Source: an uncultured Gammaproteobacteria bacterium | Lineage (GTDB): Bacteria > Patescibacteriota > Microgenomatia > CAZETR01 | Assembly: GCA_964514545.1 (NCBI GenBank) | Contig: CAZETR010000011.1 | Span: forward strand, 26,294-90,293 | Reading direction: 5' to 3' | Length of the DNA: 64,000 bases | In this document: positions 46,390 to 64,000 of the stretch, one piece after another | Numbering within the stretch: position 1 is the first letter of the stretch | Layout: each line of letters starts with the position of its first letter | Position numbers and translations under genes: made by a program | The notes under the pieces: generated by a model | Told to the model about the DNA's origin: nothing | Database searches by the model: none | Seen by the model: the letters and a program-made list of their open reading frames with translations, nothing else

Positions 46390-47832
46390 ATGTTCAAAAA
46401 TGCGTGGTTTGATTCAATTGCGGCAAATCGGGACGAATGGATAAAGAGGAATTCTTATTATTACGGCTTTATAGAAAACTTAGTGAAATTCTACGTTCCT
46501 GGGGAGGCAAGTGTACTTGAAGTCGGTTGCGGAACCGGAAACTTGATCGGAAAACTAAAAAATAAAATGCGCGTTGGGGTTGACGTTAGCCGGGAAATGC
46601 TTAAAATTGCTAACCGGCACGCGAGAGGCGTTAAGTATATAAGAGCAGACGTGGAAGATGAAGCGGTTGGCGGAAAATATGACTGGGTTTTGGCTGTCAA
46701 CTTGGTTGGATATCTGTCAGATGTTTACAAAGCCTTTGAAAAACTAAAATTGAATTGTATGTCTGACTCGCGAGTCTTGGTTATAACCTACAACCACTTG
46801 TGGGAACCGATCTTAAAACTTGGAGAATTGCTCGGTCTTAGGTCGAAACAACCGGAACAAAACTGGCTTGGAGTCGATGATGTGAAGAATATTTTTTCTG
46901 CAATTGGCTTTGAACTTGTTCAGACAGACTTTAGGTTACTTGTTCCGTTCGACCTGGGGCCAGTTTCCAACCTGATTAACAACCTCTTCGCAAGCTTACC
47001 GGTCATTAGGCATTTTAGCCTATTACAGTGTTTAATTTTCCGACTAGAAAGTCGAACCGAGCGAAATTTGTCCGTTTCCATTATTGTTCCGGCTAGGAAT
47101 GAAGAAGGAAATATTCCAAATATAATCAAACTTCTGCCAAAATTCGGGAAATGGCAGGAAATAATATTTGTCGAGGGGCATTCGAAAGATAGGACGTGGG
47201 AGGAGATAAAGAAAATTTCAAATATCCCATTGAAAATTTCTGAAAATTTATCAAGGGTAAACAAATATCAAAGATCAAATAAATTTGTAGTTAGAGCTTA
47301 TAAACAAAAGGGTATGGGCAAGGCAGATGCGGTTAGATTGGGATTTGAGCAAGCGAAGGGTGAATTGTTGATGGTGATGGATGCTGATTTGACTGTTAGC
47401 CCAGCAGAACTGCTCAAGTTCTATAGCGTAATCTCTCAAGGTAAAGCTGACTTTGCAAATGGCAGTCGGTTGGTCTATCCGATGGAAAAGGAATCAATGA
47501 GGTTTCTAAACAAAGTTGGAAATAAAGTTTTCGGAGTCCTTTTGTCTTTTATCCTGGGACAGTCTTTCAAGGATACTCTGTGTGGTATGAAGGCTCTACT
47601 AAAGAAAGACTATGACAAGATTAAAAGAGGCCGAGCTTTTTTCGGTGATTTTGACCCTTTTGGCGATTTTGATTTGATTTTCGGTGCTGCGAAATTGAGT
47701 TTAAAGATTCTGGAAATACCTGTCAGGTACTGGGAAAGAAAGTATGGGGCAACTAATATTAACCGTTTTAAGCACGGGTTGATGTTGCTGCGGATGACCT
47801 TCTTTGCATTTACAAAATTTGTGTTTTACTAG
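46390..47832 (+). CDS. Bifunctional fusion: N-terminal SAM methyltransferase plus C-terminal GT2 (Dpm1-like)
   Basis: N-terminal LEVGCGTGNLIGKL SAM motif. C-terminal SVSIIVPARNEEGNI...MVMDADLT GT2 core, followed by a hydrophobic tail. Confidence 0.75.
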   Translation: MFKNAWFDSIAANRDEWIKRNSYYYGFIENLVKFYVPGEASVLEVGCGTGNLIGKLKNKMRVGVDVSREMLKIANRHARGVKYIRADVEDEAVGGKYDWVLAVNLVGYLSDVYKAFEKLKLNCMSDSRVLVITYNHLWEPILKLGELLGLRSKQPEQNWLGVDDVKNIFSAIGFELVQTDFRLLVPFDLGPVSNLINNLFASLPVIRHFSLLQCLIFRLESRTERNLSVSIIVPARNEEGNIPNIIKLLPKFGKWQEIIFVEGHSKDRTWEEIKKISNIPLKISENLSRVNKYQRSNKFVVRAYKQKGMGKADAVRLGFEQAKGELLMVMDADLTVSPAELLKFYSVISQGKADFANGSRLVYPMEKESMRFLNKVGNKVFGVLLSFILGQSFKDTLCGMKALLKKDYDKIKRGRAFFGDFDPFGDFDLIFGAAKLSLKILEIPVRYWERKYGATNINRFKHGLMLLRMTFFAFTKFVFY

Positions 47833-49381
47833 ACACGCATTGCGGTTGCTTGAGAAGAAGCATTTTAGTTCCGGAGATTCGTTCGAATGGAGTTGATTTA
47901 TATTGGGGATTGGCAGTAATAAAATCACTGTACGAGACTTGCTGAATATAGAGGGCGTTCCAGCACAAATTGTCTATGGGCACGGAGTTTCCATTGTGAT
48001 CCCCTACGAATGAAAGGTTTTCTAAATCGTATAGATACGGATAGGTTCTGGCTAATTGAGCCGCATTAAACCTTCCGGCCCAAACTCGGCTCCACAATAA
48101 GGAGAATGGTTTTGACTTACCGTATTCCCAAATTGCCGGTCCATCTATTTTTTGAGTTGAAACAAAGACTTCCAAGGCTGCCGAATTTTCAACTTCCTCC
48201 CGGACGTTTACTGATTGACGAGAAATCGTTGATATCGCCAATATTATTGATACGATTAGAACAAGTTGTCGTAGTGATGTGGACAAAGACTTGAAAATCA
48301 ATAATATGGCCGTAATGGTTAAAAAAAGATTTACAGTTTGGTAATAATCCTGGGGGTATTTAAAAAATGCTAACCAGCCGAGGATTGATAATCCAAGTAA
48401 CAAACCAGGGGTTCGGCTGTTGGTAAATTTTCGTGAGAATAGAACAGCTATTGCAGTTAAGACTAGGAGAAATAACCATGGGGTTGACCTTAAACCGGCT
48501 GTGGCGTGAACTGTCCAGCTAGCAATGTCGAGAACTTTAGTCTCTCCCCCACCGTAAACTCCAGCATGGCTAAACAAGGCAATGGCCCATCGGAAAATTT
48601 GTGAGTATCTGTCGTGAATTGGCCAGGTGGTTACGATGAAACCGAGTGCAATTAAGAGTGAGTCCATGGCTACCCTTAAAACAACATTGAAGATTGCTTT
48701 CTTGCTTTTTACCGCCCTGGAAAATCCCAGCGCTAAGGTAATCGGAATTATTGTAATTGAGGTAAATTTGCTAGCAAGCATTACGCCTGAACAAAGTGCC
48801 ATTAATCTCATAGGGAAATCTAATTTATCTCTATGCCAGACGGAGTAGAGAACCAGCCAGATTGAGAAAAGAAGAAATAGCATGTTTTCGGCTCTTATTG
48901 AGACTGGAATAACTGTAAATGGGTAAAACGATAATAGAATGGCTATTCCAATTAACGAAGTTGTTCTTGATTCTGAAATTGCGAACCATCCGCACAGTGT
49001 CAAATAAATACTGAAAACGAAGATCACAGATATAAATCCACGGCTATACCATAGAAGTAAATCGATGTTTACAGTGCTCCATTCTAGAAATGAGGTGTGG
49101 TGAATTTTTGCCCATACTCTGAGAGGCCAATAAGAAGACCCAAGGAACATATGGAGCGGAGTACCGGGGTGATTCGTGTAGGAAATTTGACCTATTGTTA
49201 TCCACTCCACTGCGTTACTAACGTAGTGAATGTCAGGGTCAATTGAATAGAACGGACTGGTTGGCCTTGTAATAATCGGTGAAACTAGGATAGCTGTTAT
49301 GACCAGGGACGCTAATAAAAAGAGTGCCCTAATCCTGAAGGAGGGGAAAACAACGTTTTTAATTCCCTCAACGGTCTTCAT
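47810..49381 (-). CDS. Polytopic membrane protein, possible GT-C-like
   Basis: 523 aa with more than ten hydrophobic segments and an early loop IDPDIHYVSNAVEW. Located inside the GT2 / GT-C block. Confidence 0.45.
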   Translation of the reverse strand: MKTVEGIKNVVFPSFRIRALFLLASLVITAILVSPIITRPTSPFYSIDPDIHYVSNAVEWITIGQISYTNHPGTPLHMFLGSSYWPLRVWAKIHHTSFLEWSTVNIDLLLWYSRGFISVIFVFSIYLTLCGWFAISESRTTSLIGIAILLSFYPFTVIPVSIRAENMLFLLFSIWLVLYSVWHRDKLDFPMRLMALCSGVMLASKFTSITIIPITLALGFSRAVKSKKAIFNVVLRVAMDSLLIALGFIVTTWPIHDRYSQIFRWAIALFSHAGVYGGGETKVLDIASWTVHATAGLRSTPWLFLLVLTAIAVLFSRKFTNSRTPGLLLGLSILGWLAFFKYPQDYYQTVNLFLTITAILLIFKSLSTSLRQLVLIVSIILAISTISRQSVNVREEVENSAALEVFVSTQKIDGPAIWEYGKSKPFSLLWSRVWAGRFNAAQLARTYPYLYDLENLSFVGDHNGNSVPIDNLCWNALYIQQVSYSDFITANPQYKSTPFERISGTKMLLLKQPQCVSSKTQIL

Positions 49382-50525: not shown

Positions 50526-51193
50526 CTTCTTTGGGTAATTTTAAATGTCGGAATTGATAAAAAGACTTCAATTGCTTCGAGCAGAGAGACGCCTTTGAAT
50601 TGGTCAAGGTAAATGTTTTCTATTGGTATTTCGGTGTATTTTATTCCGGCTGAACCGATTCTGGCAATCATTTCGGTTTCGACACCATAGCGTTCTGACA
50701 CCCATTTTATTTGTCTGTATGCCGAGGAGCGAAATGCCCTGAATCCGCAAAGGAGGTCTTTGACGTAGATGCCATAGATACCGGAGACCAGAATCGCTGC
50801 GACCCTGTTTCCTAATTTGCGAACAATTGGTACTGGGTGGTGGCCGGTTCTAATACCAATTGCAACGTTGTATTTTTTGAGGGCCTTGATAAATTTAGAA
50901 ATGTGAGAAGGTTTGTGCTGACCGTCTGCGTCAAAGGTAATAATCGCCTTAGCTCCGACGGAAATTGCGTATTCAATCCCCTTCCTTAACGCATATCCTT
51001 TACCCTTATTAAGGGGGAGTGACATTAGTGTTATTGGCAATTGTCTGGCTATTTTAGGAGTGTTATCGGTTGATCCGTCGTCGACGAGAATAATGTTTTT
51101 GCACTCCTTTCGAACACCCTGAATAACTTCGCGGATGTGTCTTTCTTCATTATAGGCAGGAATAACGACATAGGTATTGGATCTATTTATCAT
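50522..51193 (-). CDS. GT2 polyprenyl-phosphate sugar synthase-like (Dpm1-type)
   Basis: YVVIPAYNEERHI...LVDDGSTDNT...TFDADGQHKP. Confidence 0.8.
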   Translation of the reverse strand: MINRSNTYVVIPAYNEERHIREVIQGVRKECKNIILVDDGSTDNTPKIARQLPITLMSLPLNKGKGYALRKGIEYAISVGAKAIITFDADGQHKPSHISKFIKALKKYNVAIGIRTGHHPVPIVRKLGNRVAAILVSGIYGIYVKDLLCGFRAFRSSAYRQIKWVSERYGVETEMIARIGSAGIKYTEIPIENIYLDQFKGVSLLEAIEVFLSIPTFKITQRR

Positions 51194-52323
51194 GCTACCC
51201 AGTAGCCTCTGGTAAACCTCATCCAGAGGAAAAAGAGCCCTGAGACGGAAATGAGGAAATATACTAGCGTTAGTTTTCTGCGGCTGGAAAAAAACTGTGC
51301 AAGAAGAAGAAATGAAGGGAAACAGACCAGAACATAACGAGGTAGTGATACGAAGCTACCGGTAAGCGTGGGCACGATAAATGCAAGGAGATTGAAAATG
51401 GAATAAGAAAGGCGGTGTTTGACTAGGGAAAAAAACGAGGTGATTAGGAACACTGTTCCGACAATTGCCTCCAAAACAATAGTCGAATAGATATCACTCG
51501 ACCTATCTACCGTTGTTATCATTTTAAAATAGCGCCAGTATACTTGATAGAGCATGATTATTTTTTGACTCCTAAATTCGCCGTAGTGACTCAGTGATCT
51601 GATGAAAATAAATGGGTCGCCTGTGGAGGATTTGAGAAATTGCATATAGTAGATTAGCCCCAGGGGTATTAAACAAATCGCGAGTAGGGAACGAAAACTT
51701 GTCGACGGGTGGTTTTTTCTTTGTGTAAACCATTCAATAATCATCGCGGGAAAGAGGAAAATCCCTACAAATCTGGTTGAGGTAGCCAATAATCCCGCTA
51801 TTCCAGCTAACCACCATTTTTTTCTTCTGGCTCCATAAAAAGTCAAAACTGTTAACAATAAAAAAAGCGATTCGGTGTATACAGCTCCAAAGTAAAAGCT
51901 GGTTGGAAATATCAATATAACTAGCAAGGTAAGCAGGCTAACATTTTTGGTGTAGTCGAGTGCAATTAATTTGTATAAAAAGAATAGGGCCGTGATAAAA
52001 CAAACATTGGAAATTGTAAATCCGGCTAATGCCGAATTCGAATTGAATAAAGGGGAAAGACTTTTTATTAGATTGGGATAAAGCGGAAAAAAGGCCTGTT
52101 CTGCAAGCCTGTAGCCAAATTTTGCAATCCCAAGGTAATGTTCACCGTCAAAGTTTGCGTGGACCCAAAGAAGAGGATTTTTTTCAACTGTTTTCCAGTC
52201 AGTTCCCAATAAGTCATGTTTGAGCTGAAAAAACTTGGGGGCAATGAAGATCAGCGCTATGAGCAGTAATCTCCACGAAATAAAGCCGGCAATAATTCTC
52301 TTTGTGGGTGTGTAAAGAATCAT
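51190..52323 (-). CDS. GT-C-like membrane glycosyltransferase (PIG-V/mannosyltransferase-like), tentative
   Basis: WVHANFDGEHYLGIAKFGY...AFFPLYP resembles PIG-V/GT76-type mannosyltransferase signatures. Multi-pass membrane. Confidence 0.45.
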   Translation of the reverse strand: MILYTPTKRIIAGFISWRLLLIALIFIAPKFFQLKHDLLGTDWKTVEKNPLLWVHANFDGEHYLGIAKFGYRLAEQAFFPLYPNLIKSLSPLFNSNSALAGFTISNVCFITALFFLYKLIALDYTKNVSLLTLLVILIFPTSFYFGAVYTESLFLLLTVLTFYGARRKKWWLAGIAGLLATSTRFVGIFLFPAMIIEWFTQRKNHPSTSFRSLLAICLIPLGLIYYMQFLKSSTGDPFIFIRSLSHYGEFRSQKIIMLYQVYWRYFKMITTVDRSSDIYSTIVLEAIVGTVFLITSFFSLVKHRLSYSIFNLLAFIVPTLTGSFVSLPRYVLVCFPSFLLLAQFFSSRRKLTLVYFLISVSGLFFLWMRFTRGYWVA

Positions 52324-52334
52324 GTTGAGTATGT

Positions 52335-53168
52335 CTAGCGCCAGTCTTGAGCTATTCTTTCTCGCGTCTGCGGATTGTGTTTAAATTCCCAGTATTTTAC
52401 GTAGGCTGATGCTTTGGTTAATCCGCTATAAAAGGCAAAAATAAATCCCGGGAAACCGTCTACGAATCCCAGGTGGCGAACGTAAATGGAAATGAATATT
52501 AACACGGGTGAAAAAATAAAGAACCTAATAAAGCTAATAGGTCCGGTTCCCGGGTTGATTGCGAATAATTCGTGGGCAAAGAGGGTTGAATAACGATTGT
52601 CCTTCGTAATATAGGCTGAAAATGAAGGTGTTGGTAAATGGATTAGTTCGTTTTCTAACCAACCGATTTGTCCGGCTATTTCGATTTGTTCATGGACACT
52701 CGTCTGCGGAAATTTGCCCTTTCTTCGACGGAATAACCTGACTACCGGGTCAGGGTAGTGACCACCCTTCTTGATCCAACGACCGAGAAACTGTTTTTTT
52801 CGCTTGATCCAGTAGCCATCAGCGGCATTCTTTGACTCTATAACTCTTTTTATCTCGTCTGCTAACTGCGGTGAAACCCTTTCATCAGCATCAAGCTGCA
52901 AAACCCAGTCTCCCCTTGCCATACCGATGGCCTTCTGTTTCAGAATATGAAAAAGTGGCTTATTTTCCGTTACGATTGTTCTCGCCCCGAGGTTTTTTGC
53001 AATTTCAACTGTGTGGTCATGCGAATTTCCATCTACTATTACAACCTCTTCTGCAAATTTTTTAACCGAGTCAAGACAGTCAACAATGTTTTGTTCTTCA
53101 TTGAAGGTCGCGAGGCAAACGGAAAGTTTAATTTTAGACCCTGAATAATTCAAATGCTGGTTTGCCAT
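52335..53168 (-). CDS. Glycosyltransferase family 2 with C-terminal membrane anchor
   Basis: LSVCLATFNEE...VIVDGNSHDHT...LQLDADE, followed by two hydrophobic helices. Confidence 0.8.
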   Translation of the reverse strand: MANQHLNYSGSKIKLSVCLATFNEEQNIVDCLDSVKKFAEEVVIVDGNSHDHTVEIAKNLGARTIVTENKPLFHILKQKAIGMARGDWVLQLDADERVSPQLADEIKRVIESKNAADGYWIKRKKQFLGRWIKKGGHYPDPVVRLFRRRKGKFPQTSVHEQIEIAGQIGWLENELIHLPTPSFSAYITKDNRYSTLFAHELFAINPGTGPISFIRFFIFSPVLIFISIYVRHLGFVDGFPGFIFAFYSGLTKASAYVKYWEFKHNPQTRERIAQDWR

Positions 53169-54798
53169 TTGGAAAGTTGATCGTTTTAATGGGTGAAATG
53201 CCTGCGGGCGCCTCTTCCGGGGAGGTAATAATGAGAGCGTTGTGGTACTCGGCCATATTGTCCCATTTTATTGGTTTGAACTCAAATTTGCTGAATCTCT
53301 CAACTGTCGAAAAGCCGAAATTGTCACGGGGTGTCAGAACATGATCGGCCTGAAATTGCGACGGGTTGAAACCTGTAAAGAAAAGGGTAAGTATGTACGG
53401 TTGGTCATATCTGTCGGTGATCACGATTTTATCAAAGTTTGAGCCATTTTCTCTAAGATACTTGACCAATTCCTGAAAGCCGTATTGGGATGAAAATGGT
53501 AAACTTTTGGCCAAGTGATTATAGTACTGATGAAGGTAATAGGTAAAATTCCAAGTTATTACTGCAAGTAGAAGGATATGCACTAACAGATTCTTGGGGC
53601 GGGCTTTTGGTCGCCCAATTATCGAAACGAGTCCAAACGCAGATATGAGTTCCAGGGGGATAATCATGTTTTCGGCGCGTAAGGCGTGGGGACTTTGGAA
53701 AGTCAGAGAGGATGCAAGTGGAGCGATGATAAGCCATAGAATTGGAAACTTGCCTAATCCTTTTGCGCCAGCAAGGAAAATTATGCCGATGGCAAGAGTT
53801 GGGATTTCAAAATAATAAAGCAGGCCCATGTTAGGGATTTTATTTCTCTGGATTTCGTCTCCACTAATAAAAAGGAAGTCAGCCGAAAAATGTCGGGTGT
53901 AATTGTCGAAGAAACGAATTGTATATTCGACAAGGCGGTTGTGAATTAGTTTCGCTCCTTGGCTAAACGGAAAACGATGCTGGGATCTCAGTTCATCCGA
54001 GCGCGATTTAGGTCCAGGATCAGATGTGATGCCGACTCCCAGAAATCTAGCTGAAGCACGGCTACTGAAAAAGCTGGCTACTATAGGTAATAATAAAATT
54101 ATAGAGATTGCAATTGATGGTAGTAGCTTACTAAGTTCGGGTCGCTCACTTCTTGGGGTGGTTAAATAAAGTGCAAGAGCCAATATTGGAGCGACCAGGC
54201 GCATCGAGTGGTAGAGGTACATCGTAAGCAGAAAGGCAAATACGGAAAGTTTGGGAGATCGGGCTAGTTTGACAGACTTAATGTACTGCAGGATACCAAA
54301 GAGAAGTACTGTAGTTGCTGCGTTACTCTCCCAACCACCACGCGAAAAGTGGATATGCCATGGAGAAATAGCTAGGAGGAAACCAGCGACGGTTCCGATT
54401 GAAAATTGAATACTGAAAATTGAAAATTGTTTACCCGGGTAAATTAGGTTTGCAAGCTCGCTTATAAGAAAGATGGAGAAGATCGAGAGGAGGATATTGG
54501 GAAGGCGGACCGCGAGTGTGTTTAGACCAAGTGTTTTAACAAACGGGAGAGCAAGGTAGAAATAGGCTCCCGGTTTGTAATCATTGAATGATTGAAATTC
54601 AAACGGCCAGGGACGGCCGTGTTCGTCTTTTCCGGTTTTGATCAAAGAATAGGTGTTATAACCGATGGCTGCTTCATCGGCATTCAGAGCCGGAAGCGAG
54701 CTGATCTTATAGAATCTGAGAACTGAAGATAAAAGAAGAATGAGAAAAAGAGGAATATTTTTCTTCCACTTCACTGCCATGACTTTAATCGGGTTCAT
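53134..54798 (-). CDS. GT39/ArnT-family (PMT_2) membrane glycosyltransferase, paralog 1
   Basis: LNADEAAIGYNTYSLIKTGKDEHG N-terminal loop with DE, SPWHIHFSRGGWESN, and more than ten TM segments. Confidence 0.8.
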   Translation of the reverse strand: MNPIKVMAVKWKKNIPLFLILLLSSVLRFYKISSLPALNADEAAIGYNTYSLIKTGKDEHGRPWPFEFQSFNDYKPGAYFYLALPFVKTLGLNTLAVRLPNILLSIFSIFLISELANLIYPGKQFSIFSIQFSIGTVAGFLLAISPWHIHFSRGGWESNAATTVLLFGILQYIKSVKLARSPKLSVFAFLLTMYLYHSMRLVAPILALALYLTTPRSERPELSKLLPSIAISIILLLPIVASFFSSRASARFLGVGITSDPGPKSRSDELRSQHRFPFSQGAKLIHNRLVEYTIRFFDNYTRHFSADFLFISGDEIQRNKIPNMGLLYYFEIPTLAIGIIFLAGAKGLGKFPILWLIIAPLASSLTFQSPHALRAENMIIPLELISAFGLVSIIGRPKARPKNLLVHILLLAVITWNFTYYLHQYYNHLAKSLPFSSQYGFQELVKYLRENGSNFDKIVITDRYDQPYILTLFFTGFNPSQFQADHVLTPRDNFGFSTVERFSKFEFKPIKWDNMAEYHNALIITSPEEAPAGISPIKTINFPNGKPAFELFRV

Positions 54799-56450
54799 TG
54801 TTTTTTGGATGCGAAAATATAGAAAGCCGGAGATTTGTCAGGGTATTCAATTTCTTTAACCAGCCTTACATCGGTTTGGTTTTTGGCGTTTGGATCCATG
54901 GCAAGAGGCTCCCCTACAACAAGGGTGTTCGATAGGTATTTATCCCCACTCCAGGCAAGCGGCCGAAACTCCACGTTGTCAATTTTTTCGATTAATCCAA
55001 CGTCTCCGTTTGGATTTTCCTTTAGTCTGACTTGGGGCCACCATTTCCGCGGGTCATATTTTTGATAAAAGAGAAAATAAATATAGGGTTGAGCGTAACT
55101 TTGGTTGAAAATAATTTTTTGGTATTGGGTCTGAATAGGGCTTAAGGCATTTACTACTTGTTTATAGCCAAAGTACCAATATTTAGCGTTGAGGAGAGAT
55201 GTGTGGATAAATTCCAGATCAAGAAACCTAACCAAAGAGATTGTGTATAAAATGATGATTAGAGCGATAATTGGTTTTGCGCTTTTAAAAGATCTGACCA
55301 GGTAAATTAGTCCGAATGCTGTCGCAAGAGTTAGCGGAGCAACAAAATTTAATGATCTGACCCCGTGTATTATGTCTCTGGAAAGGGCCGCCGAGAGAGG
55401 GGCTGTGGCAAGCCAGTAAAGCATAAATTTTTGACCTGATGATGAGGAGTTTACAATCTTGACTACACCGATAACTAAAAATACGGCTTCGAATATGTAC
55501 ATTACCCCGTGGTAGGGAGTTGAATGCCTAAGTGTCGTCCAATCGCCTTCAAATAAGAGAAATCTTGGAGAGAAGTAATTGAAATAGTGCAAGAGAAAAA
55601 CTTTAGAGAGATATAGGGGTTCCGAGTGATAAAGATAATAGGATAGGGTTTTTTGTGATTTTCCATCTTCGGACAGAAGTTGAGAGATTTCTTCCGGTGA
55701 TCTCCTGTAAGCAAATAAACTATAGACCTTGAGTCTTCCTGAACCAGTGCGCAGTGAAATAATTATCGGTAGTGCCAGAAGAGATAAAACGATAGTTGGT
55801 TTAATTAGGACTTTAGTTTGCGGCAGTTTGATTCTGTAGGCTAGTAAAAGCGACAAGATTGTTAACGGGGTGGATAATTTTGCTCCCTGGTAAGCCCAGA
55901 AGGTAAAACCAAAAAGTAGCGCCGAATAGTAATAAAATTTTGGTCTGTCGAGTGATTTTAAAAAGAAATGGATACCGGCCAAAGTAAGAGTAAGCGCGAG
56001 ATTTGATTCCCAGGCTCCCCTGGAGAGGTGGATGTGCCAAGGGGAGAGTGCGAGCAAGAAACTGGCGACGTGCCCAACGTTAAGTTTTAAGAAACTAGTT
56101 TTAACGTTGTTCTCGGAAAACAACGCGTTTGCGATAAAATATATCATTAGAACTGCCACTAATCCGGCTATGGCGCCCGGAAGACGAGTCGAGAATTCGT
56201 TGAGTCCAAAGATGGCTATAAACGGTATGTCTGAATAAATATAAAGACCCGGTTTATAATCCCCGAATGATTTAAAGACAATTGGGAACCTCTGACCGTA
56301 TTCGTCCCTGCCTGTTTTTAGAATCGAGTAAGCGTTGTAGCCCAGTGCTGCCTCGTCTGGTGTCAGATGGATTGGATTTGTACCCAGACCCCAGAATCGC
56401 AAAATTGTCGCTATAACTAATATTGAGAGTAAGGGTAAGTTCTTGAGCAT
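54795..56450 (-). CDS. GT39/ArnT-family membrane glycosyltransferase, paralog 2
   Basis: LTPDEAALGYNAYSILKTGRDEYG; SPWHIHLSRGAWESN. Confidence 0.8.
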   Translation of the reverse strand: MLKNLPLLSILVIATILRFWGLGTNPIHLTPDEAALGYNAYSILKTGRDEYGQRFPIVFKSFGDYKPGLYIYSDIPFIAIFGLNEFSTRLPGAIAGLVAVLMIYFIANALFSENNVKTSFLKLNVGHVASFLLALSPWHIHLSRGAWESNLALTLTLAGIHFFLKSLDRPKFYYYSALLFGFTFWAYQGAKLSTPLTILSLLLAYRIKLPQTKVLIKPTIVLSLLALPIIISLRTGSGRLKVYSLFAYRRSPEEISQLLSEDGKSQKTLSYYLYHSEPLYLSKVFLLHYFNYFSPRFLLFEGDWTTLRHSTPYHGVMYIFEAVFLVIGVVKIVNSSSSGQKFMLYWLATAPLSAALSRDIIHGVRSLNFVAPLTLATAFGLIYLVRSFKSAKPIIALIIILYTISLVRFLDLEFIHTSLLNAKYWYFGYKQVVNALSPIQTQYQKIIFNQSYAQPYIYFLFYQKYDPRKWWPQVRLKENPNGDVGLIEKIDNVEFRPLAWSGDKYLSNTLVVGEPLAMDPNAKNQTDVRLVKEIEYPDKSPAFYIFASKKQ

Positions 56451-56453
56451 GAT

Positions 56454-58139
56454 TTAGCGTATTTCCAGTAAATCAAAGGCCGGATGCCCGTCGAGAAAAT
56501 TAATTGTGGAAAGTTTACTCCACCCTGATGGATAGTTCCCGGGGGAGGTCACTAATAACGCTGGTTTGACCAGGGGTATTTTAACTCCGCGCTCGGTTGT
56601 CAGATCTTTAACCTGCCAGTCATTTACAAACCAGTATTTCCCGAATCGATCTGTCCAGTACCAGTTTGACTGAAAATAACGGATTTTATTGGGATCGGTT
56701 TGTAGGTCGAGAGGGTTAAACTTAAGATAAAATAAATAAAACTCGTGCGGTTCGCCGTATTTTTTAGTCGTAATTACCGTACGGTACTCTGGATGAGAAC
56801 GCAGGAACTTAACGACGTCTTGGTAACCATACTGCCAGGCCCATGAGTAATTTACCCGATACGTTGTAAATAAAACTTTCATGTAATTGAATAGAGGTGC
56901 TGAGAGGCAGAGCGTAAGGGTAATAAAAAATATCTTAGTTGTATATTTAAGTTTGGTTTTCAAAAATTTGTGGGCAAGAAAAATTCCAACAGCCGATATG
57001 AGTACAATTTCTGGGAGCATAAGTGAGCTCCTAATGACATGGTATTGACCTGACGTAAGAGCTGCCGGAATTGGTGAGGAGAAAAGAAGGATCAATACCG
57101 GAGATTTATAAAAGTGCCGATTTTTAACAAAATAGATAAGCCCGATGTAAAAAAAGGGTAGAATTACAAGCGGAAGGAGTCCAAAGCCAGGGATACTGTA
57201 TTGATACTGACTGCCGCCGGAGACAAATAAAAAGTTGGGTAAAAAATAACCGATGTAATTCTTAAAACTTTGTTTGACAACGTAGATCCCCTTGTTGTAA
57301 ATAAGGCGAGAGAAAATTGCCGGGTAGGGTGATTTTCCCCGAAGATGGTTTATTTCGTTAATTGCGCCTGAGTCTAAAACAAAAACCCATGGGGCCCGAG
57401 CAGTCGATGATGAGGAGAGAAAAATCCAGAACATTGATGAGGATAGGAGCAATGCTGAAAGTAGGATTAAGACGTGTTTACTCGGATGTTTTATTATTTC
57501 GTTCAATTTATGAGCGTGTCGGAAAGCGAGGAAAATGAACAATATCGGAATGACGAGGCGAGTGTTGTGATAGGAAAATAGAGAGAAAGATAGACATAAC
57601 AATGAGAGGGGAAGGAAAAGCGAATGTCTGTGACGGTGAAAGTAAAGAGCAACGCCGCTAATGAAAAAGAAAAGAGCAATTGTTGACTGAAACACTGCTC
57701 GAGACGGGAGGATATGCCAAGGAGAAATTGCCAATAGAAGAGCGGCAAAAAGTGCGATGTTTTTTGAGTTAATGCTGGTTGGAGACTGTTCTAAGAGACC
57801 TGTTGTAAAGAAATAAATCGAAATAATTGAGAGGGAACCAAACAGGGCTGCCGGAAAACGGGTGCTAAACTCGGTGAGCCCAAAAGTAGCAATAAACGGT
57901 ATTGAAAGATACATATAGGCCGTGGTTGGATAATCCCCATAGGCTCTAAAGTTTATAATGGGTAGACGCTTCCCCCATTCGTCCCGTCCAGTCTTTAATA
58001 TTGAATAGGCGTTGTAACCATGACTAACCTCATCCCAGTTAAGAGAAGGTGGCGAGGACGAAAGGTGAAGAAAACGAAGAAATATCCCTAAAAAGAAAAT
58101 AAATATTAGCCCCGGCCAGGGATGTAAGAGTTTTTTCAT
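56454..58139 (-). CDS. GT39/ArnT-family membrane glycosyltransferase, paralog 3
   Basis: LNWDEVSHGYNAYSILKTGRDEWG; SPWHILPSRAVFQS. Confidence 0.8.
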   Translation of the reverse strand: MKKLLHPWPGLIFIFFLGIFLRFLHLSSSPPSLNWDEVSHGYNAYSILKTGRDEWGKRLPIINFRAYGDYPTTAYMYLSIPFIATFGLTEFSTRFPAALFGSLSIISIYFFTTGLLEQSPTSINSKNIALFAALLLAISPWHILPSRAVFQSTIALFFFISGVALYFHRHRHSLFLPLSLLCLSFSLFSYHNTRLVIPILFIFLAFRHAHKLNEIIKHPSKHVLILLSALLLSSSMFWIFLSSSSTARAPWVFVLDSGAINEINHLRGKSPYPAIFSRLIYNKGIYVVKQSFKNYIGYFLPNFLFVSGGSQYQYSIPGFGLLPLVILPFFYIGLIYFVKNRHFYKSPVLILLFSSPIPAALTSGQYHVIRSSLMLPEIVLISAVGIFLAHKFLKTKLKYTTKIFFITLTLCLSAPLFNYMKVLFTTYRVNYSWAWQYGYQDVVKFLRSHPEYRTVITTKKYGEPHEFYLFYLKFNPLDLQTDPNKIRYFQSNWYWTDRFGKYWFVNDWQVKDLTTERGVKIPLVKPALLVTSPGNYPSGWSKLSTINFLDGHPAFDLLEIR

Positions 58140-58145
58140 GGCGAG

Positions 58146-59762
58146 TTAAGGCTTTTGGTTGTCTTTAACTGACACGAACCTGAAGAGAACTTTTCCGCTG
58201 GGATCCAAAATATCTTTCAAGCTTTTTATATCTTCAGGAAAATCCTCATTTGAGCCGATCAAAAGAACATTGCCCCTATTTCTGTCGAGCGACCAATTTA
58301 AATCCCTAATCTCGTATTTGCCGAGATTGTAGCTTTCCAACTGATCTACGTATTTTTTGCCTGCTGATTCGTATCTAAGCCAGTCTTTGGAATTCTTTTG
58401 AAAATCGGGCGGATCCCAGGGTTTGTAAAAGGCCAGAAAACTTTGGGGTTCAGTATAGCGTTTCGAGAAATGGATGGAATCGTAATTGTTCTCGAGAGAG
58501 ATGGCTGTCTGAAAGGCTTCCCGGAAACTAGCTCTTTGACTGTAGATTGGCTTTTGAGGCAAAAGAAAAAAATATTTGAATAAAAAGTAAACTACGGAAA
58601 TCAGTAGAATTGTAAATATTAATTTTGGTTTAACTTTAGGGTTCGATTGAAGAAAGCGAGTTAGCCCAAAAGCCGAAAGGATCACACTTAGTGGCAGAAT
58701 TGTTATTCCTCGGTTTGCGTTTAGGTCTCCAGCCAATGCCGGCGCGATAGGGGCAAGTAAAAACCAGCCAAATATTAACTTCTTGTGGATGTGTTTTTCT
58801 CTGAGAAGAAAATAGATGGCGTATGCAATAAAGATAATTTCAATTCGATAGTGAAGAGGTGTTCCGGGAAAGTTAAGGTGGGAATTGTCCGGGCGGGCTC
58901 CGGTAAAGAAAAATGTGGGGGAAAAGTAGCTCAGGTAGTTTGTTATAAACTGCCCTCCAACAAAAATATATTTGTTATCGAATATTTTAACTATGGCTGG
59001 GTGGATTGGAATTTGTGGTCTGTTTGTAAAATATCCAGCAACATTTTGTGAAGAAAAGATACTTACGTCGCTGGCTCGCTTGAGGACAAGTTTAAAATTG
59101 AGGAGCGTGGGGAGAAATATGACAAAGAAAATTCCAAGTGAGGTTAGCAAATATATTCTTTTTACTCCGCGTGACCTGAGAAACGGAATAAGTATAATCG
59201 TTAACAAGAGTGTTGCGAGTCTCCACGAGTGATAGGTATATGTGTTAATTGCTAGAAACAGAAAACCCGAGTAAAGATATCTTCGATTGTGGATTCCTTT
59301 TATAGCTAGCAGTAGACCTAGACTAACAAAAAAAATGCCTAATCCACCTTCGAAAGCCGAACGCGAGACTTGGATATGCCACGGTGAAATGGCTAAGAGA
59401 ACCGCAGCCCACATACCGGTATGAGAATCAAATAATTCCCGAGTAAGCAAGTAAACAAGGAGTATTGAAAGGGTACCAAAAAGGACTGCTGGGAGTCGAG
59501 TCGAGAACTCCGACAGACCAAACAAAGCCACCGACGGAATTGTAAGGAATGTATAAAGGGGAGCTTTATAATCTCCAAAGCCCCGGGGGAATAGTGGAAG
59601 GAGTTCTCCCCATTCATCCCGTCCAGTTTTCAAAATTGAATAGGCGCTGTATCCCTGTCCTGCCTCGTCGGCATTAAAACCAGTTGGGAATTCGGTGATC
59701 AAGGCTATTCTTAGGAGGAATCCTAGAAAGAGGGAAAGTATCAGGACGTGTCGGAGGTTCAT
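58146..59762 (-). CDS. GT39/ArnT-family membrane glycosyltransferase, paralog 4
   Basis: FNADEAGQGYSAYSILKTGRDEWG; SPWHIQVSRSAFEG. Confidence 0.8.
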   Translation of the reverse strand: MNLRHVLILSLFLGFLLRIALITEFPTGFNADEAGQGYSAYSILKTGRDEWGELLPLFPRGFGDYKAPLYTFLTIPSVALFGLSEFSTRLPAVLFGTLSILLVYLLTRELFDSHTGMWAAVLLAISPWHIQVSRSAFEGGLGIFFVSLGLLLAIKGIHNRRYLYSGFLFLAINTYTYHSWRLATLLLTIILIPFLRSRGVKRIYLLTSLGIFFVIFLPTLLNFKLVLKRASDVSIFSSQNVAGYFTNRPQIPIHPAIVKIFDNKYIFVGGQFITNYLSYFSPTFFFTGARPDNSHLNFPGTPLHYRIEIIFIAYAIYFLLREKHIHKKLIFGWFLLAPIAPALAGDLNANRGITILPLSVILSAFGLTRFLQSNPKVKPKLIFTILLISVVYFLFKYFFLLPQKPIYSQRASFREAFQTAISLENNYDSIHFSKRYTEPQSFLAFYKPWDPPDFQKNSKDWLRYESAGKKYVDQLESYNLGKYEIRDLNWSLDRNRGNVLLIGSNEDFPEDIKSLKDILDPSGKVLFRFVSVKDNQKP

Positions 59763-61483
59763 CTCGAAAGGATGTAAAAAATAGGCTGAGCGGAGGGATT
59801 TAGAACTGTTTTGAGAATTCGCACGTCTTTTGTCGGACTGTTAATCCAATCTCCAGTTCCAATTTCATCTCGTGCGCTGGCAACATAAATATCACCCGGC
59901 TTTAGCAGTTCAATAAATCCCTGATCCTTGACGATCTTTTCAACTATTCCGAAATAATACTTATCTCCGATATTAAATCCTTTAAATCCGGGCACAATAT
60001 CCGATTTCATTTCATATGAAGTAAATTGTTTTTGAAATAGACCCGGATCGTAGTTGTACCAAAAGAGAAATCTGGGTAATGATGGCTCGTATGTATTGTT
60101 TATGTAAATTCTGTTAGTTTCTGAATCGTGTTTTTTGAGATAAAGCATGCTTTCTTTGAATCCGGACTGCCAAAAACGCCAGGATTCCCGTGGCCATTCT
60201 ACGTAATAGCGGAATAGATATTTGCTTATATTATAAGTTCCTAATAGGCAGACGATAATGATGGCTAACTTTACCGGCGTTTTGTGTTTTGAAGTAAATA
60301 ATTGATTTATTCCCATTGCTGAAATAATTGCAAGCGGTGGTAGGAGCACAATTAGCCTGCCGGCGTGATTGCCACCGTCCTTCGTTAATGCAGAGGCAAC
60401 GGGAGCAATCAAAAGCCAACCCAGAAGAAGATAATAAGGAGGCTTAACTGTTGAGGTGGTTACTAGTTGTTTGGCAATAACTCCGAAACCCAGAACTATG
60501 GTTATCGCTTCAAATAGATATAATTCTCCCATTCCACCTACGGAGTGACGTAGAATTGGATCTCCCTCAAATAAAAGAAAGTCGGTCGAGAACGATTTTA
60601 AGTAATTATGAATAATTTCTTCTCCGTATAGAGTTAGTTTATTTCGAAAAAACCGAGTCAGGGGAGAGATTGATTGTGATCTACGGGTGATCAGGTCGTG
60701 CAAGAGGGACTGGTCTCTGAAAAGAGAAATTTTGGAGAACCTTTCTGAAGGGGAGCCACGGGTGAGCTGGCCTATAAATGGGATAAGCAAGATAAGGGCA
60801 ATTATGCAGGCTGATGCGATCGTTGCCGGCTTGATCTGTTTGATTGATTTCCAATAGACGGATATTGCAGTTAAGAACAGTAATGGAATAAAAAGTATGG
60901 CAATCGCGTATGAGTATATTCCGAGGGCATTAATTGCAGCGGCTATAGGCAATAGCTTGGGTGTCGTTCGCGACTTTAAAAGGAAATACAGACCAAATAG
61001 AGAGAAAACCAGAACTCCGATGTTGTCGTTATCCCAGCGAGAGAATTGAATATGCCAAGGGGAAATGGTCAATAGAATTAAGGAAATTAATCCTAGACGA
61101 CGGCCGAAAAGATCTCTGACAATTAAGAAGAAAGCGGCAAGGGAGAGGATTCCAAAAAAGACGCTTGGGAGTCTAACTCCCAATTCCGTAAGGCCAAAAA
61201 TAGCAATAAACGGAACTGTTGAATAGATATAGATCGGGAGTCTATATTCAGCAAACGATTTGAACATGACAGGCAATAAGTTCCCGTAGTAATCTCTTCC
61301 TGTCCTGAGAATCGAGTTTGCCTGTAATCCAACATCTATTTCGTCACCTGATAATTCGATTGGCACCCGATCAAGCTTGTAGGTTCTTAAAAATATGGCG
61401 AGAATAAAAGTTAGTATGACTAGAAGGGAGTACTTGGAGAGCATATGGCTACGTTCATTGTATCTTATTCTTCGTAGATGCAA
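59759..61483 (-). CDS. GT39/ArnT-family membrane glycosyltransferase, paralog 5
   Basis: LSGDEIDVGLQANSILRTGRDYYG; SPWHIQFSRWDNDN. Confidence 0.8.
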   Translation of the reverse strand: MHLRRIRYNERSHMLSKYSLLVILTFILAIFLRTYKLDRVPIELSGDEIDVGLQANSILRTGRDYYGNLLPVMFKSFAEYRLPIYIYSTVPFIAIFGLTELGVRLPSVFFGILSLAAFFLIVRDLFGRRLGLISLILLTISPWHIQFSRWDNDNIGVLVFSLFGLYFLLKSRTTPKLLPIAAAINALGIYSYAIAILFIPLLFLTAISVYWKSIKQIKPATIASACIIALILLIPFIGQLTRGSPSERFSKISLFRDQSLLHDLITRRSQSISPLTRFFRNKLTLYGEEIIHNYLKSFSTDFLLFEGDPILRHSVGGMGELYLFEAITIVLGFGVIAKQLVTTSTVKPPYYLLLGWLLIAPVASALTKDGGNHAGRLIVLLPPLAIISAMGINQLFTSKHKTPVKLAIIIVCLLGTYNISKYLFRYYVEWPRESWRFWQSGFKESMLYLKKHDSETNRIYINNTYEPSLPRFLFWYNYDPGLFQKQFTSYEMKSDIVPGFKGFNIGDKYYFGIVEKIVKDQGFIELLKPGDIYVASARDEIGTGDWINSPTKDVRILKTVLNPSAQPIFYILSR

Positions 61484-61629
61484 AGTGGGGTCTGGAGCGT
61501 ATCAACAACCGCCAACTTACGCAGGTGGTTTGCCGTACTTCTCTCGCTTTGCGAGTCCGCCTTCGGCAGAAAATCTACATCTACCAGATAACGCTGGTAG
61601 ATTTAAGACTTGAAGTATAAAGTTGGGGT
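61484..61629. promoter_or_regulatory. Divergent intergenic region with a perfect 7-bp inverted repeat (candidate operator/promoter region)
   Basis: CTACCAG-ATAACG-CTGGTAG at 61581..61600. The region is GC-richer than its surroundings and lies between the head-to-head GT39 array and the plus-strand paralogs. Confidence 0.3.
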
Positions 61630-63183
61630 ATGTTTGATCACCGAAATAGGTCATGGAAGTTGATACTTGTAGTTCTTCCGGTTTTGATCAAAGTTTTTTT
61701 GTTATTAAATATTCAACTCGGCATTCAGGAGCATCTGTATCTATATAGGGCATGGACTTTGGTAAAGTTCGGGAGGGACGAGACCGGAAACTTTCTGCCA
61801 CCAATTTTTCAGTCTCATGAGAGCTACCAGTTGCCATTTTTGTCGTATCTGATTGTTCCTGTCGTGGGAGTTTTAGGTCTGAATTTCTTCTCCGGGGCAA
61901 TTGTTGAGATGGGGTTATGGGCTGGTTTAGCTTTATTGCTATTGCATAAGTTCAAGGGAATAGGGGCTCCATTGATGGTACTTGTGGGTCCAATTTTTGT
62001 TTGGCCGGGGAGTTGGGAAGCAAAGCTATTGGTTGTGGAGCTAATGCTTTGGTTTATATTTCTGGAGCGGAGGAGATGGATAGCTTTAACTGGAATTGGA
62101 GTATTGATGTTGCTGACTTCTTTTGATAGCTATGTTTTGCTACCGACCTTGATTTTGGGAGCTGGAGTTGCATTTCCAACTTTGAGAAAAGGATTGTTTA
62201 CTCCCGGGGTCTGTTTAATTCTGCTCGTGACGAGCTTGATGTTCCAAGCCAGAAGATTTCCAGGACTTGGGAGAGCATTTCGAGAGAAGGAGTTTGGTGT
62301 GTTTCTTGGCTCTGAAGTTAGTTCCACAATAAACTTACTCAGAGGCGAGGATTTGAGAGCAAATGTTCAAGTGTGGGCGCGGGTCTGGCATAATAAACTT
62401 TCATATGGAACTGTCTTTATTAATAACTTCTTAACTGCGACTGATCCGGTACTGTTCTTTGGGCATGGGGATCTGGACAAAAGATCTAATAGCCAGTGGG
62501 TTGGAATCCTGTTGGTAGTGTACCTGCCGATGTTGGTTTTGGTTGTCCGATTTTGGAAAATGAGTTACGCTTGGTGGGTTTATGTTTTTGTGGTCGGGAT
62601 AGTGATCGCGAGTTTGAAAGGTACGCAGGTTTTTGAGCGAGATATGTTTATCGCTGCCTTGTGTTTGGTAATTATTATTGCCGGAGTAATGGATCGATTT
62701 CCGTTATGGGGCTACAGGGTTCAGGTTGGTGCCACTATGCTTTTATTGTTTGCTGTCTATTTTTCAGCTAATTTTCATCCCTTAAATATGGAAATCGAAT
62801 CCGGGTATGGGCTGAAAAATATAGCTAGTTTAGCGTTAGCTCACCCGAATACATTAGTTTTGTTCGCAGATGATGTCTATGCTAATCCAGGACCAACTTT
62901 AGCTTATTATATGAAACCAGTCCCTCTCAAAAATAAGTTGAGTGTTTTTGGGTACAGGCAGTTTTTACGTAGAGTTGGGAATATTGAAGTGGTGACCCCT
63001 AACGATAAACGCCTGGAACTGGAACGCGAGATGTGCCGGAAAGTTGATTTAGCTCCGATTCGAATTGTTTCAGCAAATGCAGTTAATGGTTGGTCGGATT
63101 ACAGGCTCGCCGTAGTAAAACCTATTATTGTTCAACGTTCAGGAATACCCCTTGTCTATTCAGCTGTTTACAATGAAAAGTAA
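61630..63183 (+). CDS. Divergent GT39-like membrane protein lacking the catalytic DE motif (possible pseudo-glycosyltransferase)
   Basis: LGIQEHLYLYRAWTLVKFGRDETGNF...YQLPFLSYLIVP aligns with the LNADEAAIGYNTYSLIKTGKDEHG...YKPGAYFYLALP loop of the neighbours, but has QEH in place of DE. Polytopic. Confidence 0.55.
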   Translation: MFDHRNRSWKLILVVLPVLIKVFLLLNIQLGIQEHLYLYRAWTLVKFGRDETGNFLPPIFQSHESYQLPFLSYLIVPVVGVLGLNFFSGAIVEMGLWAGLALLLLHKFKGIGAPLMVLVGPIFVWPGSWEAKLLVVELMLWFIFLERRRWIALTGIGVLMLLTSFDSYVLLPTLILGAGVAFPTLRKGLFTPGVCLILLVTSLMFQARRFPGLGRAFREKEFGVFLGSEVSSTINLLRGEDLRANVQVWARVWHNKLSYGTVFINNFLTATDPVLFFGHGDLDKRSNSQWVGILLVVYLPMLVLVVRFWKMSYAWWVYVFVVGIVIASLKGTQVFERDMFIAALCLVIIIAGVMDRFPLWGYRVQVGATMLLLFAVYFSANFHPLNMEIESGYGLKNIASLALAHPNTLVLFADDVYANPGPTLAYYMKPVPLKNKLSVFGYRQFLRRVGNIEVVTPNDKRLELEREMCRKVDLAPIRIVSANAVNGWSDYRLAVVKPIIVQRSGIPLVYSAVYNEK

Positions 63184-64000
63184 AATAATTTTGTTCTTGA
63201 TTCTTTTTGTTGCGGGTTTCTTGAGATTGTATTTGCTGGGAAAATATCCTACTTCGTTAAGTGTAGACGAAGTGTCGATTGGATATAACGCCTATTCAAT
63301 TCTCTCTACTGGCAGGGATCAGTATAGACGATTTTTTCCGTTGGTATTTGAGTCTCTCGGAGATTTCAAATCTCCAGTTTACATTTATGTGACGGCTGTA
63401 TCTGAGAAATTGTTAGGGGTTAATGAAGTTGCTGTGCGGGTTCCAGCAGCCGCTGCGGGAATTGTCGTAGTGTTCTTAGCCTACCTGGTAATTTACCGGT
63501 TAACGGGAAAGGTTAATTTGGCTTTGTGCTCGGCGGCGGTCCTCGCGCTTTCGCCTTGGCATATCAGATTTTCCAGAGGTGCCTATGAAGCAAGCTTGGC
63601 CCTCGCGTTTTTAATGTCAGCTTTTTACTGCCTAATTAGATTGAAAAAATTCACGTTGGGGCTAGTAATGGCTATATTCTCTATGTATACCTACCACGCC
63701 GAAAAGATTATTGCCCCACTGTTTGTTATGGGCATGGTGGTTATTTATCGAGATCGTTTCCATGTTTTGTGGAATGGCTCAAGGAAAAGAATGGTCTTTC
63801 TGGGATTTGTCTTTGCCTTAGCCACAATGGTAGCTGTTTTTATAAACGGTGGACAAGTGAGAGCCTTACACACGAGCATATTAAGTGATGTTGGGGTAAA
63901 TCAGGGATTGAGTCAAACTAAAGGGCTAAAGAGCGTAAATCGCGCATTTCTTGTATTTAGTACAATTACGAATAGGTATATTCAATATTTTGGCTCGTAT
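63173..64000 (+). CDS. GT39/ArnT-family membrane glycosyltransferase, paralog 6 (3' truncated at window edge)
   Basis: Manual translation from ATG at 63173 gives MKSKIILFLILFVAGFLRLYLLGKYPTSLSVDEVSIGYNAYSILSTGRDQYRRFFP...SPWHIRFSRGAYEAS. Not in the ORF track because it runs off the window. Its start overlaps the stop of the previous gene. Confidence 0.75.
   Translation, partial: MKSKIILFLILFVAGFLRLYLLGKYPTSLSVDEVSIGYNAYSILSTGRDQYRRFFPLVFESLGDFKSPVYIYVTAVSEKLLGVNEVAVRVPAAAAGIVVVFLAYLVIYRLTGKVNLALCSAAVLALSPWHIRFSRGAYEASLALAFLMSAFYCLIRLKKFTLGLVMAIFSMYTYHAEKIIAPLFVMGMVVIYRDRFHVLWNGSRKRMVFLGFVFALATMVAVFINGGQVRALHTSILSDVGVNQGLSQTKGLKSVNRAFLVFSTITNRYIQYFGSY

Follow-up and report, generated by a model that had tools for sequence, protein, structure and literature searches.

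Gene content and arrangement of the locus

Across all domains of life, GT-C enzymes synthesize glycoproteins and the glycans of the cell envelope. Here, we describe a divergent GT-C-like gene in a stretch of 64,000 nucleotides from an uncultured bacterium (GTDB lineage Patescibacteriota; Microgenomatia; CAZETR01; GenBank assembly GCA_964514545.1, contig CAZETR010000011.1, positions 26,294 to 90,293), hereafter the window. The gene (the target) is one of seven paralogs, among which it is the most divergent, with 18-21% identity to the others in the MAFFT alignment A1. Five canonical paralogs lie on the opposite strand, and the seventh, the partner gene, overlaps the end of the target and is truncated by the end of the window (Table 1). 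A scan for promoters and terminators across positions 61300-64000 yielded no signal stronger than in shuffled sequence and detected no terminator between the two genes. The 11-nt overlap between the target stop codon and the partner ATG suggests that the two genes are translationally coupled.

Table 1. Positions of the target gene, its sequence features and its paralogs in the window
Feature	Position	Strand	Description
Target open reading frame (ORF)	61630..63183	+	517 aa, intact; divergent membrane protein with predicted GT-C_A fold, proposed non-catalytic subunit
Q33-E34-H35	61726..61734	+	Codons CAG GAG CAT; in the first extracytoplasmic loop (EL1), right after transmembrane helix 1 (TM1), at the D-E-x position of the paralogs
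R40	61747..61749	+	N in the canonical class (GYN to YR); residue that defines the "R-class" in this analysis
D50-E51	61777..61782	+	Part of the second acidic motif G-R-D-E-T-G, kept
Q67	61828..61830	+	K in the canonical class (DYK.P); column of ArnT K85 in the profile alignment
A90	61897..61899	+	R of the "RLP" motif in the canonical class and the R-class
P121-x-F-x-W125-P-G127-S128-W-x-x-K132	61990..62025	+	Clade-specific; canonical counterpart S-P-W-H-I-x-x-S-R-x-x-x-E
F165-D166-S-Y168	62122..62133	+	Basic residue (R-class K165, canonical R/K168) gone; acidic residue 166 gained
I-N235-x-x-R238-G-E240 ... H254-N255-K256	62329..62397	+	Clade-invariant, in a large extracytoplasmic loop; mostly common to the whole family
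F277-x-x-G280-D281	62458..62472	+	Clade-invariant motif
Partner gene (seventh paralog)	63173..64000	+	276 codons inside the window; canonical GT-C
Overlap of target stop and partner ATG	63173..63183	+	11 nt; ...ACAATGAAAAGTAAAAT...
Five canonical GT-C paralogs, head-to-tail	53134..61483	-	D-E motif in all five

Loss of the EL1 aspartate in the target protein

In alignment A1, which contains the six complete paralogs, the target reads G-I-Q33-E34-H35 where its five neighbours read x-D-E-[A/V/I], and the truncated partner (63173 onwards) has V-D-E-V at the same site. After TM1, the neighbours follow the pattern L-x-x-D-E-[A/V/I]...G-Y-N-A-Y-S-I-L-K-T-G-R-D-E-x-G...D-Y-K-x-P, while the target follows G-I-Q33-E34-H35...L-Y-R40-A-W-T-L-V-K-F-G-R-D50-E51-T-G...S-Y-Q67-L-P, with Y-Q67-L-P-F-L-S-Y as the counterpart of the paralogs' "YK.P.Y". 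An earlier sequence-only reading of this DNA had noticed Q-E-H in place of the D-E of the paralogs, which is borne out by both the alignment and the codons. Its statement that the D-E pair is lost applies to the aspartate (Q33), whereas the glutamate is kept (E34). The diverged flanks that it described are present as well, since RLP is replaced by A-I-V and SPWHI..SR by G-P-I-F-V-W-P-G-S.

A sequencing slip or frameshift is excluded because the reading frame is undisturbed and a change between Q (CAG) and D (GAY) needs two substitutions. We also rejected D50-E51 as a displaced catalytic pair: these residues align with the paralogs' own GRDE, and the distance from D33 to K67 (34 residues) is nearer to that from D55 to K85 in ArnT (30) than is the distance from D50 to K67 (17). 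Judged by the alignment, the absence of the aspartate in the target is far beyond chance, because its column is D in 53 of the 56 canonical representatives defined below.

The EL1 aspartate corresponds to D55 of ArnT, D77 of Pmt1 and D56 of PglB, and the roles of D77 and E78 in Pmt1 have been treated (PMC7801869, PMC8698208). This first EL1 aspartate is present in every GT-C transferase compared (PMC7801869). Substitution of D55 by either Asn or Glu leaves ArnT dead (PMC8698208). In alanine scanning of the S. coelicolor Pmt, D113A and D113E were non-functional, while D113N and E114A were functional and complemented the mutant; the authors dispute that D113 acts as the catalytic base (PMC8698208). 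Because D113N is functional and the aspartate is absent in 41 of 54 R-class proteins (Table 2), the change from D to Q taken alone is a weak indicator of inactivity and not a proof of it. Some family members that are otherwise canonical (N40/K67) read N-E instead of D-E (L008 2690-4336; P0031, P0126, P0144). An amide at the position of the "catalytic Asp" therefore recurs outside the R-class, echoing the functional D113N variant.

Further residue losses in the target clade

Relatives of the target were obtained only by an exhaustive HMMER search of 1.84 billion representatives, which gave 234 relatives at E<=1e-3 and nine at E<=1e-30; a word-index homologue search, whether run with the single protein or the clade alignment, returned only the query. 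The relatives identified belong to Microgenomates-group bacteria (Patescibacteria/Candidate Phyla Radiation, CPR), e.g. Candidatus Amesbacteria. From them, we built an alignment of 119 sequences (A4) and sorted these by the residue at target position 40 into a canonical class (56), an R-class (54) and the close clade of the target (9). A neighbour-joining tree places the canonical class apart from an R-superclade, inside which the close clade is monophyletic. The class-wise counts in Table 2 indicate that loss of the aspartate is a lineage trait found across the R-class rather than a private defect of the target.

Table 2. Occurrence of selected residues in the three sequence classes of alignment A4
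Column	Canonical class	R-class	Close clade	All
D33	53/56	13/54 (absent 41/54)	0/9	
E34	56/56	53/54	6/9	115/119
D50	56/56	54/54	8/9	118/119
R90	54/56	52/54	0/9	
S127	52/56	51/54	G in 9/9	
R128	56/56	R or K in 49/54	0/9	
E/D132	47/56	E at 132 or 133 in 34/54	K in 9/9	

Other positions follow the same division. Position 67 is K in the canonical "DYK.P" and Q or E in the R-class and the target, and it co-varies with N40R: 29 sequences have D-N-K and 42 have x-R-Q/E. The basic residue after the fifth helix (K165 in 45/54 R-class proteins, R/K168 in 39/56 canonical ones) is absent in the close clade, in which position 166 is D or E in five of the seven ungapped sequences. The column of canonical R338 holds D338 in the target, with R337 adjoining. 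E51 is kept in 105 of the 119 sequences, and R218, R238 and K256 are kept in the target; R218 and R337 are present there, yet they are not conserved across the close clade. Taken together, the loss of six or seven canonical polar residues is much stronger evidence of inactivity than the replacement of D by Q.

Fold and relation to characterized GT-C enzymes

The sequence-only reading had assigned the protein to GT39, a label that is not supported. Neither the target nor its closest relatives P0002 and P0003 match any Pfam family at E<=10, and the target has no NCBIfam match, including none to ArnT or Agl23. In contrast, the threshold of PMT_2 (PF13231) is passed by three of the five neighbouring paralogs tested, one of which also passes that of PMT (PF02366), and the partner fragment matches PMT (E 4.8e-10, threshold reached) and PMT_2 (E 9.1e-7). 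A PDB sequence search with the target alone gave no match at E<=10, and a six-paralog profile gave noise only. An AlphaFold2 model of the target built from alignment A4 reached a pLDDT (predicted local distance difference test) of 93.0 and a pTM (predicted template modelling score) of 0.92. Its best Foldseek matches in the PDB were STT3A (6s7o_A, E 6e-6), ArnT (E 2.1e-5), PglB (5ogl_A, E 1.2e-4) and AftA/AftB (E 1e-3), each with probability 1.00 and template modelling (TM) scores of 0.41-0.50; PMT structures were not among the matches listed for the model. Based on these matches and on that between the family profile and the ArnT sequence (E 3.9e-7), the target is confidently predicted to have a GT-C_A fold of the ArnT/STT3 type, the superfamily of multi-pass membrane modules characterized by a long EL1 and an extracytoplasmic C-terminal domain. 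The D-E motif of loop 1 in GT39 reads Q-E in the target. The canonical paralogs (53134-61483 and 63173-64000) match the NCBIfam model TIGR03663, "flippase activity-associated protein Agl23", far below its cutoff (E 1e-8 to 7e-11, 35-42 bits against 126).

Among solved structures, ArnT (the lipid A aminoarabinose transferase, GT83; PDB 5ezm/5f15) gives the best profile match, with a TM score of ~0.41 in Foldseek. Both proteins share the EL1 layout "DE ... GD ... [EK]-K-P-P" and a polar pair in the second and third extracytoplasmic loops (EL2 and EL3). However, the match is only ~12% identical, and the columns of D55, K85, D158 and K203 are all substituted in the target: Q replaces both D55 and K85, a K falls on or beside D158, and K203 has no equivalent. 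In the profile alignment, family K67 corresponds to ArnT K85 (SEQRES 88) and R-class K165 to ArnT K203 (SEQRES 206), and the E132 column lies one residue from D158. ArnT K85 binds the carrier-lipid phosphate, and D158 and K203 form a salt bridge and contact the substrate (PMC7801869). In the secondary structure of the model, helix 129-146 carries K132 at its N-terminal end, and D166 comes shortly after helix 150-163, places that match those published for ArnT D158 ("EL2, N-terminal to TM4") and K203 ("EL3, C-terminal to TM5"). The change of E132 to K, the loss of K165/R168 and the gain of D166 may thus represent a charge-swapped version of the ArnT salt bridge, which would keep the architecture and not the chemistry.

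STT3 and PglB, catalytic subunits of oligosaccharyltransferases (GT66), are the best Foldseek matches (TM ~0.45), and a canonical paralog aligns with TM3-TM4 and the DNE region of STT3A, its S-R-x-x-x-E segment falling on the "S-Y-D-N-E" motif (E 3.8e-3, placement uncertain by about one residue). Nevertheless, the likeness to this family is at the level of the fold only: there is no WWDYG-type motif and no match to the STT3 C-terminal domain, and the target lacks the acidic EL1/EL2 residues, the EL2 one being represented by D158 in ArnT, D-N-E in STT3 and DxD in PglB. The Pfam families PMT_2 and PMT ("GT39-like") are reached by some neighbours and the partner fragment, unlike the target.

Conserved pairing with the downstream gene

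We compared 13 genomic contexts, namely the window, L001 (Amesbacteria), L002, L003/L004, the contig of P0004, L005 to L011 and L016; of these, L008, L009 and L016 are the contexts of the R-class members P0012, P0026 and P0025. A scan of a genome collection with a four-sequence alignment gave one locus, and a metagenome scan gave four, three of which were duplicates of known places and one a short partial. In every one of the 13 contexts, the gene is directly followed by a co-oriented PMT/PMT_2-type gene, and the order of the two never changes. The stop codon of the first gene and the start codon of the second overlap by 4-47 nt in 12 contexts and are separated by a 7-nt gap in one. The downstream proteins form one orthologous group, with the N-terminal pattern S-x-x-V-D-E-V-S-I-G-Y-[N/D]-A-x-S...G-R-D-[Q/H/I] and a C-terminal ...L-I-G-S-P-W-S-L-P. 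The partner fragment in the window, which carries V-D32-E33-V, DFK.P, VRVP and SPWHIRFSRGAYE, scores 450-669 against the partners in nine other contigs, compared to 246-362 against other GT-C genes of the window or of foreign loci.

The pairs of L010 and L011 have only unrelated genes around them and belong to no glycosylation gene cluster, which argues that the linkage is not a side effect of glycosylation islands. An association of the target with adjacent active paralogs had been proposed in the sequence-only reading; the data point to the co-oriented, overlapping gene at 63173 and not to the five oppositely oriented paralogs.

The partner keeps D33, K67, R90, R128 and E132 (target numbering), all of which are lost in the target. 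It also keeps the first D-E, and its second acidic motif is degraded to G-R-D-Q-Y-R (63311-63325, residues G47-Y51). The orthologous partners in L001-L007, L010, L011 and L016 have D-Q, D-H or D-I there, while the partner of R-class P0012 in L008 still has GRDEWG. As the target clade keeps G-x-D-E-x-G where the partner is degraded, the losses in the two proteins are reciprocal.

Conservation of the target clade

The close-clade proteins are only 23-39% identical and come from independent assemblies; the nearest orthologue of the target is 36-39% identical in protein. Despite this distance, alignment A2 of the close clade contains the invariant motifs P121-x-F-x-W-P-G-x-W-x-x-K132, I-N235-x-x-R-G-E240, H254-N-K256 and F277-x-x-G-D281. 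Several of these residues are frequent in the whole family (R238 in 92, N255 in 105, K256 in 100, F277 in 109 and D281 in 92 of 119 sequences). Invariant motifs at this level of identity in a monophyletic clade indicate that the target clade is under purifying selection. At the same time, conservation was lower for the upstream protein than for its partner in each of the 21 genome pairs compared (e.g. 36% versus 52% and 26% versus 40%), and it has 17 invariant columns compared to about 70 in the partner. Relaxed selection, which the sequence-only reading had raised, hence holds only in the sense of faster divergence than the partner; with invariant motifs of its own, the clade represents an old, conserved lineage and not a case of recent decay.

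Two members have lost the acidic EL1 loop. P0009 (L010 4001-5317) has a short EL1, and P0013 (L011 3507-4658) lacks TM1 and EL1 and has in-frame stop codons upstream. Both keep the later motifs, which implies that the conserved function of the clade is independent of the EL1 catalytic loop, and the partner gene still follows each of them, overlapping P0009 by 17 nt and P0013 by 14 nt.

Neighbouring genes

The divergent intergenic region of 146 bp 5' of the target contains a perfect 9-bp inverted repeat, ATCTACCAG-CGTTAT-CTGGTAGAT, at 61579-61602, ~28 nt upstream of the target ATG, which could be an operator or a hairpin in the 5' untranslated region. The paralog on the other side of this region (59759-61483, minus strand) represents a separate conserved subclass with the pattern G-D-E-x-D-x-G-x-Q-A-x-S...G-x-D-Y-x-G...[EW]-[YW]-R-x-P (tree tag "DE_QR"), members of which also adjoin the gene pair in L005, L006, L007 and L008. 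Its listed TTG start places 13 residues before an ATG (M-L-S-K-Y-S-L-L) that looks more plausible.

At the edge of the glycosylation island in the window, the ORF at 46390-47832 (plus strand) encodes an N-terminal S-adenosylmethionine-dependent methyltransferase domain fused to a GT2 glycosyltransferase domain. The island also contains three more GT2 genes, a DUF2304 protein and two GT-C-like membrane proteins (47810-49381 and 51190-52323), the former without a family match above the Pfam cutoff. A recurrent GT-C-like family flanks the pair in other contexts (L003 4544-6004 and 10466-12001, L005 7914-9467, L006 10713-12263, L001 7202-10031) and is characterized by an N-terminal F-x-F-D-[Q/E]-[G/A]-R-D followed by L-I-G-P.

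A proposed non-catalytic subunit of a two-gene GT-C module

Heteromeric pairs of GT-C paralogs are known from yeast Pmt1-Pmt2 (PDB 6p25), human POMT1-POMT2 and mycobacterial EmbA-EmbB. The two subunits of each of these pairs retain the D-E motif, and both are regarded as catalytic. The unit described here resembles them in consisting of two paralogous GT-C proteins, as the conserved, mostly overlapping gene pair of all 13 contexts suggests, and differs in that one of the two lacks the EL1 aspartate and several other canonical residues. We propose, with a probability of roughly 0.55, that the target is a non-catalytic paralogous subunit of a two-gene GT-C module. It would be a paralog of a membrane glycosyltransferase dependent on polyprenyl-phosphate sugars, inactive by the canonical GT-C mechanism and retained as the first gene of the conserved module. 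Both proteins would be made in a fixed ratio from one mRNA and assemble in the membrane into a heteromer of the Pmt1-Pmt2 or EmbA-EmbB kind, in which the downstream subunit would do the chemistry. The target might stabilize the partner, or hold or present the acceptor or the lipid carrier, through its extracytoplasmic loops and C-terminal domain. In evolutionary terms, the module would be ancestral to the R-superclade, and its upstream subunit would have progressively shed catalytic and donor-binding residues, the target clade being the most derived; the target would persist because the intact downstream subunit requires it and is produced along with it. The pseudo-enzyme suggested in the sequence-only reading gains weight from the six further canonical residues that are lost or charge-reversed and from the strict pairing with an intact paralog; the missing aspartate as such is a weak indicator.

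A remodelled but active glycosyltransferase is possible, if rather unlikely. E34 and/or D50 would then provide the acidic function, R40 would take over phosphate binding from K67, and the pairing would reflect pathway coupling, with the target catalyzing a step consecutive to that of its neighbour, rather than a dead subunit. E34 and D50 are the most conserved acidic residues of the family and are both kept, and the covariation of N40R with K67Q/E looks like the relocation of a positive charge. Moreover, the R-class proteins without the aspartate otherwise keep R90, S127, R/K128, E132/133 and K165; the disputed catalytic base and the complementing variants of the S. coelicolor enzyme fit this view, and the invariant R238, H254, K256 and D281 could bind a lipid-phosphate donor. 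Unlike the wider R-class, however, the target clade has lost R90, S127-R128 and K165 and reversed E132 to K, its members persist alongside the partner even when EL1 is deleted, and they evolve faster than the partner. The inactive D55 variants of ArnT and the presence of the EL1 aspartate in all transferases compared also speak against activity. It is improbable that the target represents a non-transferase use of the GT-C scaffold, which would bind, flip or deliver a lipid-linked sugar or carrier lipid for the neighbouring enzyme instead of serving it as a passive scaffold. The Agl23 matches of the canonical paralogs point in this direction, as GT-C-like proteins have been annotated with such roles, and so do the new clade-invariant aromatic and basic residues W125, W129 and K132 at the membrane interface; yet these matches are far under the cutoff, and the target itself has none.

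A decaying copy under relaxed selection, or a Q that arose as a sequencing or assembly artefact, would agree with the target being the most divergent paralog and with the faster evolution of its clade. Such an origin is very improbable and effectively refuted by the clade-wide conservation of the motifs and the gene pair: substitutions and motifs are common to distant orthologues from independent assemblies, and synteny is conserved. In addition, the ORF of 517 codons is intact, two substitutions separate Q from D, and the model is of high confidence.

Several points weigh against a non-catalytic subunit. The steps from coupled genes to a physical complex and from lost residues to inactivity are ones that we infer, and positions in the active-site cavity come from alignments and predicted secondary structure only; the alignments with ArnT and STT3A span a large evolutionary distance, and a shift by one residue is possible. 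The target keeps all residues that are nearly invariant across the family (E34, D50, P57, Y73, R238, N255-K256 and D281) as well as R218 and possibly R337, so that a modified catalytic site is conceivable, and both D113N and E114A of the S. coelicolor Pmt are functional (PMC8698208). Furthermore, adjacent GT-C genes are common in these genomes, and the sample comprises 13 contexts only. Coincidental adjacency is nevertheless disfavoured by the orthology of the partners and by the two stand-alone pairs.

A more far-reaching version of the non-catalytic subunit, which we regard as tentative and on balance unlikely, has the two proteins acting as an obligate GT-C heterodimer. The dead paralog would have been retained throughout the Microgenomates lineage for dedicated substrate handling, either to hold the acceptor or to bind or flip polyprenyl-phosphate sugars. 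A division of labour of this kind would fit the reciprocal pattern, in which the target keeps G.DE.G and the partner D33, K67, R90, R128 and E132.

In the full-text literature, we found no description of a non-catalytic GT-C paralog and nothing relevant on the GT-C biology of CPR or Microgenomates bacteria. A conserved, catalytically degenerate GT-C subunit would be new, given that the known pairs have two catalytic subunits, and an obligate heterodimer, if true, would constitute the first class of GT-C pseudo-enzymes. Should the pairing reflect a complex, it would provide a compact two-gene bacterial system for probing what a second GT-C subunit contributes, a question still open for the eukaryotic Pmt1-Pmt2 and POMT1-POMT2 pairs. 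The nested series from the canonical class through the R-class to the target clade may serve as a natural experiment on which "essential" GT-C residues are dispensable. For the many GT-C paralogs of CPR genomes, an annotation rule would follow, according to which an R-class gene and its partner are treated as one functional unit.

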